A stretch of 64,000 nucleotides of DNA from IMG/VR virus record IMGVR_UViG_3300045988_009865, positions 1 to 64,000 of that record. One strand, given 5' to 3'. Within the stretch, counting starts at the first letter, position 1, and each line of letters starts with the position of its first letter. The notes under the pieces are model-generated. The model worked only from the letters and a program-made list of their open reading frames with translations. It made no database searches and was not told the origin of the DNA. The position numbers and the translations under genes were made by a program. This stretch comes from a virus. Taxonomy: Duplodnaviria > Heunggongvirae > Uroviricota > Caudoviricetes. This document shows positions 37,127-38,787 of the stretch, piece after piece.

Positions 37127-37213
37127 GGCTACTGCCATCCTTCCATACATTACCTTACCTTACCTCACCTGACCTGACCTGACCCTACCTAACATTACCG
37201 TGCCACACCTCAC
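37127..37213. repeat. pentanucleotide tandem-repeat block A1 (ACC every 5 nt on plus strand)
   Basis: TTACC TTACC TTACC TCACC TGACC TGACC TGACC CTACC TAACA TTACC GTGCC ACACC; plus strand nearly G-free. Confidence 0.8.
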
Positions 37214-37243
37214 TTAAGAACCCTCTTAAAAGACTCTTAAGTG
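37207..37243. repeat. conserved hairpin CACTTAAG-AACCCTCTTAAAAGACT-CTTAAGTG
   Basis: 8-bp inverted repeat; near-identical copy at 38749..38787. Confidence 0.6.
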
Positions 37244-37270
37244 ATGTAATCGAATTTTTATGTAGCTCCG

Positions 37271-37336
37271 ATTAACTACCCATACCTCACCTCATCCAAC
37301 CATACCATGCCTTACCAGACCGCACCTTACCTTACT
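37271..37336. repeat. pentanucleotide tandem-repeat block A2
   Basis: period-5 CNNAC pentamers (CATAC CTCAC ... CTTAC CTTAC) preceded by ATGTAGCTCCGATTAACTACCCATACC, which has a counterpart before block B2. Confidence 0.75.
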
Positions 37337-37354
37337 AAAAGACCCTGTTTAAAG

Positions 37355-37386
37355 ACCTTTTAAAAAGGAGCCTCCGAAGAGGCTAC
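37355..37386 (-). terminator. rho-independent terminator for minus gene 37396..37836
   Basis: AGCCTC-CGAA-GAGGCT followed on minus strand by CTTTTT; preceded by 31-nt conserved AAAAGACCCTGTTTAAAGACCTTTTAAAAAGG. Confidence 0.5.
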
Positions 37387-37395
37387 CTAGTCAAC

Positions 37396-37836
37396 TTAGA
37401 AAGGTTTTCTACGTTGCTTGTTAATGTTAGCTTTCATAGCAGCTAAATGGTTTTGCTGTTCAATCAGTCGTGAACGTTCTTGATGACTAAGTGCCATAGT
37501 GTTCACATTCTCAATCGCTTGAGTGGCTTGCTTTAAAGCTCGACCAATCTTGCCAGACATTTTACGTTTTGCAATAGTTGCTTGATGCTTAGGTTCAACC
37601 ACACGATAACCAACACCCATTGAAGCAACCAGATAAATCTTCTCTTCTTTAAGAAGCTTCTCAATAAACTTCTCAAGTCGGTTTAGACGTGTAAGCGCAT
37701 AAGCCTTCATTTCATCTTCGTACTTAACAATGTCACCTTGATAAGTTGGCTTCACAATACCTAAGAAGGTATCCATCTCAGAATGTGATACAGTGTCACC
37801 GTAACTAAACTTTGCTGCTAATGCTTTTGTATTCAT
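37396..37836 (-). CDS. hypothetical protein
   Basis: 146-aa ORF. Confidence 0.5.
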   Translation of the reverse strand: MNTKALAAKFSYGDTVSHSEMDTFLGIVKPTYQGDIVKYEDEMKAYALTRLNRLEKFIEKLLKEEKIYLVASMGVGYRVVEPKHQATIAKRKMSGKIGRALKQATQAIENVNTMALSHQERSRLIEQQNHLAAMKANINKQRRKPF

Positions 37837-37838
37837 AA

Positions 37839-38441
37839 TTAAACGTTACCTTCTGAAATAACTTCTACAGAAAAACGACCAAATCGTGGACGCCAATCAC
37901 CTACACCACAAAGGTTGCCAGCATTTTCCAGAACCATCAAGAGTTCTTCTTTGGTAATTTGTTCTTCATCGAACATCAAACCAAACTCTACAGACCAGTC
38001 ACGGAAGATTGGACGGTAGCTCATAACTCGTGCTGTACCAATCTTAACAGACTTAGCATAGATAAAGTCTGGATTCTTAGCAAGTTCTTGTGGGTTTGCT
38101 GGACAGTTCTTAATAGTCATTGGGAAGACTACATCTGTCAGCATAATGGCTCGGTCAATTACCTTACCAAGTTTGTTGAGTTTTGCACCAGACTTGATAC
38201 AAGCCTCAATCATCTCACCGTTCATAACAAAACCTAACTGCTCATCGTAGTAACAAGAAGTTACCAGTTGGCTTTCTGCTAAGAGCGCATAGTCTTCGTC
38301 AGTCTTTTTACGTTTACTGGACAGAGACTTGTGATATTTTGTCAGAGGATTTAATGGGTCTGACAGCGTATCAGCGTGGCTCAGGAAAGGACGAGTACCA
38401 GTGATTTTGATATTTAACAGTTTCATAGCATTTAGCTCCAC
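37839..38441 (-). CDS. hypothetical protein
   Basis: 200-aa ORF, GGAGC RBS. Confidence 0.5.
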
Positions 38442-38517
38442 ACTTTAGTTTATTGTTAAGTTGTTTGTAAAGAACCCTCAACAGAAGACTCTTTAGAAAC
38501 TTGGTAGATTTTTAATG

Positions 38518-38600
38518 TGGCTACTACCATCCACCCATACCTCACAACACCATGCCATACCCGACCGGACAAGACCAGACCCTACCGCGCCAGACCTCAT
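38518..38600. repeat. pentanucleotide tandem-repeat block B1
   Basis: ACCNN pentamers (ACCTC ACAAC ACCAT ... ACCAG ACCCT ACCGC); preceded by GGCTACTACCATCC (A1 has GGCTACTGCCATCC). Confidence 0.75.
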
Positions 38601-38620
38601 TAAAAGACCCTATTTAAAGA

Positions 38621-38662
38621 CCTTTTAAAAAGGTAAGTCTCATTTTAATGTAGCTGAGACTA
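38621..38662 (-). terminator. hairpin AGTCTCA...TGAGACT with T-run on minus strand, between blocks B2 and B1
   Basis: 7-bp stem 38636..38642 / 38655..38661, then TACCTTTTT on minus strand; adjacent 31-nt conserved sequence shared with region A. Confidence 0.45.
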
Positions 38663-38752
38663 ACTACCCATACCCTACTTTACCTTACCGTACCGTACTT
38701 TACCCGACCGTACCGGACAATACTTAACCCTACCTCACCCGACCGGACATCA
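38657..38752. repeat. pentanucleotide tandem-repeat block B2
   Basis: about 19 tandem NNACC/NNGAC pentamers (TTTAC CTTAC CGTAC CGTAC TTTAC CCGAC CGTAC CGGAC ...). Confidence 0.8.
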
Positions 38753-38787
38753 CTTAAAAACCCTCTTAAAAGACTCTTAAGTGATGC
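38749..38787. repeat. conserved hairpin ATCACTTAA-AAACCCTCTTAAAAGACTC-TTAAGTGAT
   Basis: 9-bp inverted repeat; copy of 37207..37243. Confidence 0.6.

Follow-up and report, generated by a model that had tools for sequence, protein, structure and literature searches.

The stretch of DNA analysed here (the window) comprises positions 1 to 64,000 of the IMG/VR virus record IMGVR_UViG_3300045988_009865, a Felixounavirus whose best match is the E. coli phage vB_EcoM_E9 (98.5%). Two of its intergenic regions, A and B, contain blocks of tandem degenerate pentamers, and these regions, together with the two genes between them, are attributed with a probability of about 0.95 to a single VIPR (Viral Interference Programmable Repeat) locus of the SUSP1 clade, the type II of the preprint. 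VIPR was described in April 2026 as a phage-encoded system for RNA-guided DNA silencing, which combines Vipr (a minimal single-RRM RAMP protein with G-loop and thumb) with vrRNAs about 100 nucleotides (nt) long and an accessory vap gene (bioRxiv 10.64898/2026.04.26.720920 and 10.64898/2026.04.26.720927). The first-pass annotation of this DNA, which had regarded the blocks as not being a known phage element, was overtaken by these preprints; its finding was correct but already explained, because the blocks correspond to four VIPR guide-RNA genes. The element had no annotation in public records before and is now explained as a member of the SUSP1 VIPR clade. In the window, the attribution is based on protein identity, the anatomy of the locus, the pattern of conservation, the covariation of the tails, the skip-1 rule and the target matches; transcription, formation of the ribonucleoprotein and silencing would take place here as they do in SUSP1.

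In the published system, each vrRNA is a run of 9-16 YNNGG repeats that ends in an invariant, pseudoknotted 3' tail, and the natural targets of the SUSP1 clade lie mostly in a satellite phage found in E. coli genomes. Expression of the vrRNAs, their co-purification with Vipr and repression of transcription were demonstrated for SUSP1, in which reprogramming of the NN dinucleotides redirected silencing, and cryo-electron microscopy (cryo-EM) revealed that the GGY bases were flipped and bound by Vipr, with one protomer per GGY (bioRxiv 10.64898/2026.04.26.720920,.720927). By analogy, each pentamer block of the window would be the variable part of a vrRNA of about 100 nt, and the conserved flanks would be the 3' hairpin-pseudoknot tails, of two types, and the 5' leaders. 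One Vipr protomer would bind each unit, keep GGY from pairing and present the two N bases; the NN dinucleotides would jointly pair with double-stranded DNA, with every third target base skipped, and binding would repress transcription of the target. The guides of this phage would be directed at a satellite of about 10 kb in E. coli, which has its own tape-measure gene and a phage-like baseplate-hub gene, and we infer that this satellite parasitises the phage.

Vipr, Vap1 and the published systems

The vipr gene (37839..38426, minus strand) encodes a minimal RAMP protein of 195 aa. The mechanical open reading frame (ORF) reached 38441 from a GTG (200 aa), and the ATG at 38426 agreed with the start in SUSP1. 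The one solved structure matched by the family profile was PDB 36pp, 'SUSP1 Vipr protein' (E = 2.3e-80), and Vipr read from the ATG was identical to PDB 36pp at 192 of 195 residues (E = 9.9e-129). The residues published as contacting GGY (H17, R138, D177, W178 and R179) were all identical in the Vipr of the window. The three substitutions relative to SUSP1 were located at residue 118 and at two sites near the C-terminus, and none of them affected an RNA-contact residue. An AlphaFold2 (AF2) model of the protein reached a predicted local distance difference test score (pLDDT) of 95.7, and its top Foldseek matches were the Csm3/Cas7 RAMPs. The Vipr family contains more than 500 members in metagenomes and in actinobacterial and proteobacterial genomes, and has no Pfam domain.

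The accessory gene vap1 (37396..37836, minus strand, 146 aa) starts 2 nt downstream of vipr, and its product was identical at 145 of 146 residues to that of the gene immediately downstream of vipr in SUSP1. The synteny (ligase, intergenic region, vipr, vap1, intergenic region) was also equal to that of SUSP1. The single-sequence AF2 model of Vap1 was weak (pLDDT 68) and had a helix/beta-hairpin module at the N-terminus, with long helices after it. BLASTP found no significant similarity between Vap1 and the product of the gene at the same position in L025 and L026, two distant loci; PADLOC returned nothing for vipr or vap1, and neither Pfam nor PHROGs suggested a function for vipr, vap1 or the 127-aa gene downstream. 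Some part of the 2.6-kb region was matched by 259 phage records, 97 of which covered at least 80% of the locus. In a tblastn search vap1 was at least 95% identical in 118 phage records compared with those 259, and therefore many relatives may lack the full locus.

The locus resembles the SUSP1 VIPR in its proteins (Vipr 98.5% and Vap1 99% identical), in adjoining the DNA ligase gene, and in its GGYNN vrRNAs, whose tails are of the same two types and whose guides target the same satellite family under the same 1-nt-skip rule. It differs in that two vrRNAs are located upstream and two downstream, whereas SUSP1 (L015 in our set) has one upstream and three downstream, and in that this phage is a Felixounavirus while SUSP1 is a Suspvirus. 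With the Cas7/Csm3 filament of Class 1 CRISPR-Cas, VIPR has in common the RAMP fold with G-loop and thumb, the binding of each protomer to a fixed number of guide nucleotides, and periodically flipped bases. In contrast to Class 1 CRISPR-Cas, which has a period of 6 with five pairing bases, VIPR has a period of 5 with two pairing bases per unit, its guide is encoded directly as GGY/NN, and it is borne by phages. A direct-repeat/spacer array was not found at the locus, and Pfam and PHROGs gave no cas-related family among the six neighbouring proteins, in which only ligase and helix-turn-helix (HTH) families were present. VIPR is a gapped-code RNA guide read by a minimal RAMP filament, and the preprints propose that it predates CRISPR. 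The locus is a member of exactly the clade characterised there, and the value of the present analysis lies in confirmation and annotation.

Pentamer blocks and anatomy of the vrRNAs

The four blocks had been delimited as A1 (37127-37215), A2 (37270-37340), B1 (38520-38600) and B2 (38655-38755). The claimed periodicity held above the shuffled control: identity at lag 5 was 0.63, 0.56, 0.51 and 0.56 for A1, A2, B1 and B2, respectively, compared with about 0.15-0.35 at the adjacent lags, and the corresponding z values against mononucleotide shuffles were 7.0, 4.8, 3.9 and 6.2. When 60-nt windows of the whole 64 kb were ranked by lag-5 excess, the blocks held the top three places and four of the top six. 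Tandem Repeats Finder called period-5 arrays at 37146-37199 and 38681-38715. The pentamers of the ACC type described for the plus strand were confirmed with ACCNNACCNNACCNNACC, since all 31 matches with at most one mismatch were on the plus strand and inside the four blocks (0.10 expected from shuffles). The plus strand of the blocks was poor in G, as had been noted (A1 8/89, A2 4/71, B1 10/81 and B2 11/101), and no ORF of at least 40 aa was present within 37041-37395 or 38442-38850. On the minus strand, which is the gene strand, the unit is GGYNN, and 17, 12, 11 and 14 units were counted in the four guide tracts, named vrB2, vrB1, vrA2 and vrA1.

The flanks said to be common to both regions were also found, with AAAGACCCTRTTTAAAGACC in exactly two copies (at 37338 and 38603) and AACCCTCTTAAAAGACTCTTAAGTGATG likewise (at 37219 and 38759). 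Their description as shuffled conserved flanks was refined: the flanks are real, and they resolve into two kinds of vrRNA 3' tail, T1 and T2, and two kinds of 5' leader. The flank GGCTACT(G/A)CCATCC corresponds to the T1 tail and the flank ATGTAGCT...ACTAACTACCCATACC to the T2 tail, while the 31-nt unit and the CACTTAAG hairpin correspond to the two leader types. Among the roles proposed in the first-pass annotation, a structured non-coding RNA from the minus strand was essentially right, with the blocks as vrRNA genes that have a structured 3' tail.

All the vrRNAs are on the minus strand, on which the predicted order of the locus is promoter, vrB2, vrB1, vipr, vap1, terminator, vrA2 and vrA1. 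The leader of vrB2 is a CACTTAAG...CTTAAGTG hairpin (38747..38787) with the leader motif at 38756-38774, and vrA1 has a leader of the same type. The guide tract of vrB2 (38670..38754) contains 17 GGYNN units, the first one or two of which overlap the leader, with NN = GA CC CG GA AG TA AT CC AC CG AA AC AC AA AA AG AT. It is followed by a T2 tail (38627..38669) with the sequence GGGTAGTTA-AGTCTCA-GCTACATTAAAA-TGAGACT-TACC and then a T-run. The leader motif of vrB1, GTCTTTAAATAGGGTCTTT (38603..38621), is located within the 31-nt unit mentioned above, and the 12 units of its guide tract (38537..38596) read NN = CT GC AG CT CT CC CG AT AT GT GA AT. The tail of vrB1, GGGTGGATGGTAGTAGCCACATTAAAAATCTACCA (38502..38536), is of type T1, with the hairpin GGTAG/CTACC and the pseudoknot GTGG/CCAC. 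In region A, the leader motif of vrA2 (37338..37356) precedes a tract of 11 units (37282..37336; NN = AA AA GC CT AA AT AT TG GA GA AT) and a T2 tail with another stem, TAATCG/CGATTA (37244..37281). The leader hairpin of vrA1 (37210..37247, motif at 37216-37234) is followed by a tract of 14 units (37145..37214; NN = GA GT AC AA TA AG CA CA CA GA AA AA AA AT) and by a T1 tail (37110..37144) with the hairpin GGCAG/CTGCC and the pseudoknot AAGG/CCTT.

Covariation was observed in both tail types. Among 13 distinct T2 tails, the 7-bp hairpin was 100% paired and three of its seven pairs were changed on both sides, while the 4-bp pseudoknot helix was uninformative because it was invariant. In the T1 tails, of which only six sequences were available, the pseudoknot was 100% paired with two compensatory pairs and the hairpin also had two compensatory pairs; within the window, the T1 tails of vrB1 and vrA1 differed by compensatory changes in both helices.

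The leader motif GTCTT-N4-8-RGGGTYYTT occurred five times in the 64 kb on the minus strand (0.05 expected), and all the copies were in the VIPR locus (38756-38774, 38603-38621, 38470-38489, 37338-37356 and 37216-37234). Four of them directly precede a vrRNA tract, and the fifth, at 38470..38489, is located just upstream of vipr with no repeats after it. The motif may serve as a dedicated promoter, as a signal for processing or as an operator for Vap1; the main text of the preprints makes no mention of leaders, promoters or processing of these vrRNAs.

Conservation of the arrays and their probable satellite targets

The close set contained 21 loci, namely L001-L020 and the window, with Vipr at least 97% identical. 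These loci carried 85 vrRNAs with 70 unique tracts, arranged in 20 distinct repertoires. The unit composition over the close set was G 0.76, G 0.98 and T 0.89 / C 0.11 (Y 1.00) at the first three positions, and near-uniform at positions 4-5. This is the pattern of a VIPR-type system, in which GGY is kept and NN is hypervariable among near-identical systems. The comparison with relatives suggested by the first-pass annotation bore out copy-number variation, as the intergenic lengths differed among relatives and the number of blocks therefore varies. The tract of vrA1 was identical in one other locus (L017), the other three tracts of the window were not shared among the sampled loci, and of the units of vrB1, at most 33% recurred in any one of the 81 other vrRNAs in the sample. 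About 100 records of Felix-O1-like phages that include the whole locus thus carry VIPR with fast-changing guide repertoires.

A search of IMG/VR with the 200-aa protein fetched 17 near-identical felixounavirus loci and six distant loci (37-40% protein identity). Each distant locus had period-5 GG(T/C)NN arrays adjoining vipr on its coding strand, and because every one of them had both, the protein and the pentamer arrays are co-inherited over deep divergence. In these loci (L021-L026), the distant Vipr homologues were flanked by long GGCNN/GGTNN arrays of up to about 225 nt (in L025), and in L026 one array was also present between vipr and the next gene.

The order of the tails was regular in L001-L020 and the window. 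The upstream and downstream arrays alike ended in one T1-tailed vrRNA, which came after zero or more T2-tailed ones, and the order in SUSP1, for example, was T1 | T2 T2 T1. The exception among the arrays called was in L001, which had no T1 tail call.

The target search began from the phage baseplate-hub gene: of 5426 complete E. coli genomes, 474 had a 'phage baseplate protein' gene that was 92-94% identical to it at the DNA level. The gene is part of an integrated element of about 10 kb with genes, in this order, for a recombinase, dam, HTH or hypothetical proteins, a 'transposase', a tape measure protein (TMP), a baseplate protein and an integrase. Sixteen loci of this satellite were scanned with every guide (67 unique) under four skip rules (0, 1, 2 and 3). 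An NN match of at least 85% was obtained for 30 of the 67 guides at skip 1 and for none of the 67 at skip 0, 2 or 3; therefore the published 1-nt-skip rule was reproduced independently.

Probable satellite targets were assigned to the four guides of the window, with 200 shuffles of the unit order per guide, scored against the 16 satellites, as the control. The best match of vrB2 was 28/34 (82%) at 4730-4780 of satellite L034, in a gene of 184 aa with the skip base on the wobble position (0/200 shuffles). That of vrA2 was 20/22 (91%) at 7659-7691 (minus strand) of satellite L032, in an intergenic position upstream of the 'transposase'-TMP-baseplate genes (0/200). The best match of vrA1, 22/28 (79%), was inside a hypothetical gene of 107 aa in satellites L029 and L037 (at 6406-6447 of L037; 2/200), and vrB1 matched the satellite baseplate gene at 19/24 (1/200). 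Within the 64-kb window itself, the guides reached 21/34 (vrB2), 16/24 (vrB1), 16/22 (vrA2) and 19/28 (vrA1), which is the shuffle background, with about 24 kb of the genome lying outside the window. The satellite tried first, L027, gave no convincing match for the guides of the window, and the matches came when more variants were sampled.

For vrB1, the best match of all (22/24, 92%) was in the baseplate-hub gene of the IMG/VR provirus L048, at 7360-7395, a score that lies outside the shuffle test. This provirus was the single match of an exact-seed scan of IMG/VR with units 1-10 of vrB1, and its hub homologue and the phage protein are 76% identical. The homologous site of the phage itself (23931-23966) matched at only 15/24, and over the target stretch the phage and satellite baseplate-hub proteins are identical in sequence. 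The skip base of vrB1 falls on codon position 1, so the synonymous third positions are read, and self and non-self would be told apart by synonymous sites alone (22/24 versus 15/24). Similar exact-seed scans gave four matches for the 3' half of vrB2 that did not extend (22-24/34, as expected by chance) and none for the seed of vrA1.

Three features go beyond the main text of the preprints, namely the leader motif, the array grammar (one or more T2-tailed vrRNAs, where any are present, before a terminal T1-tailed one, in all but one of the arrays called in the 21 loci) and the shifted register of vrB1. Taken together as one joint reading, they are put forward tentatively, and the reading is rather doubtful as a whole.

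Satellites were also observed to carry a vrRNA of their own with a tail of the T1 type, on the minus strand of L032 (3973-4047), L033 (4059-4128), L034 (2306-2380) and L035 (4054-4123), and no vipr gene was annotated in these four. In agreement with the preprint, these satellite guides found their matches (21-23 of 24-26 NN) in other variants of the satellite rather than in the phage. Presumably, the satellite vrRNAs would have to borrow the Vipr of the helper phage. The locus is relevant for the typing or therapeutic use of felixounaviruses, as they and a common satellite of E. coli are engaged in an arms race.

Alternative explanations and genomic context

The arrays are located within the replication module, with the ligase gene on one side and regulatory genes on the other, their G-rich strand is the non-template strand, and a promoter-like site lies upstream. 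Such a setting would suit a replication origin or an iteron/R-loop element, in which the pentamers act as DNA binding sites or the G-rich non-template tract primes replication. Iterons should be conserved, but the NN dinucleotides differed in nearly every close relative, as the 70 unique tracts among 85 and the 20 repertoires in 21 loci indicate. Moreover, the arrays accompany vipr in distant phages, some satellites have vrRNAs without vipr, and the matching of the NN strings to satellite genes only under the skip-1 rule is not explained by an origin, which is very improbable as the function of the arrays. The first-pass idea of a protein-binding array survives in part, since one Vipr protomer is bound per GGY in the published cryo-EM structure, but what is bound is RNA and not origin-like DNA. 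A G-quadruplex RNA or i-motif DNA that acts by its own fold, which had also been proposed, was not upheld and retains only a very small probability. A GG doublet in each 5-nt unit would in principle allow two-tetrad quadruplexes, but the first G was present in only 76% of the units, the information-rich positions are the NN dinucleotides, and the GGY bases are flipped and sequestered by Vipr in the published structures.

The possibility of a decoy or sponge RNA, or of a site for a TRAP-like ring protein, was weighed as well. TRAP sites on RNA are short conserved triplets that recur at intervals of 5-6 nt, each bound by one subunit of the protein; TRAP differs from Vipr in its unrelated fold, and the spacers of its sites carry no information. 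Such an RNA would not serve as a guide but would sequester a host RNA-binding protein or the anti-Shine-Dalgarno sequence of the 16S RNA, and the many AAGGU or GAGGU units, which are Shine-Dalgarno-like, and the period of 5, which is like that of TRAP sites, are in its favour. It is nevertheless extremely improbable: conservation is confined to GGY and does not extend to the preceding base, the neighbouring gene encodes a RAMP nearly identical (192/195) to one shown to bind this RNA, and the order of the NN dinucleotides gives specific target matches that are lost on shuffling. The TRAP-like ring, the Shine-Dalgarno sponge, the R-loop origin (by analogy with the immunoglobulin switch pentamers) and the two-tetrad quadruplex were early ideas that were dropped because the neighbouring protein matched PDB 36pp.

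Several points weigh against the assignment to VIPR. The match of vrA1 (79%) is just under the 80% threshold of the preprint. The targets sampled were 16 of more than 500 satellite variants and a few exact-seed scans of IMG/VR, and the true best targets may lie elsewhere. The gene vap1 is labelled as a putative accessory gene by its position and its identity to the SUSP1 gene, and the transcript ends, promoters and processing of the vrRNAs in this phage are predictions from sequence. Furthermore, the account of the mechanism comes from two preprints that have yet to be peer-reviewed (bioRxiv 10.64898/2026.04.26.720920,.720927).

The local genes are all on the minus strand, in the order DNA ligase (38851-39987), region B, the 200-aa ORF, the 146-aa ORF, region A and the 127-aa ORF. 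A consensus scan detected a candidate sigma-70-like promoter (TTGACA-16-TATACT, 11/12) at 38817..38844 on the minus strand, just past the stop codon of the ligase gene, which is the probable start of the transcription unit of the upstream vrRNA array and vipr-vap1. An intrinsic terminator, consisting of a hairpin and a T-run, follows vap1 (37369..37384, minus strand). Further downstream, an AT-rich inverted repeat followed by a T-run (37064..37110, minus strand) overlaps a promoter-like site of the next gene and probably marks the end of the downstream array.

In public annotations, both middle genes are hypothetical and the intergenic DNA is annotated at most as 'repeat_region', promoters or terminators; the PhageMaP paper does not discuss these intergenic regions. 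Within 36000-40000, the sole Rfam match at E <= 1 was to a snoRNA outside the arrays and is put down to chance. For the 127-aa gene, PADLOC gave a weak match (PDC-M61B, E = 0.019) that was regarded as chance.

A 93% match to the felixounavirus locus was found inside GenBank GU169904.1, the 147-kb 'Staphylococcus phage SA1', and two Campylobacter-labelled records likewise matched the locus; these are probably mixed assemblies or mislabelled records. The periodicity scan also brought up a sequence at about 8291-8350 of the window, GGTTCGAATCC...CCA, which resembles the T-arm and 3' end of a tRNA and probably belongs to the tRNA cluster that Felix-O1-like phages typically have.

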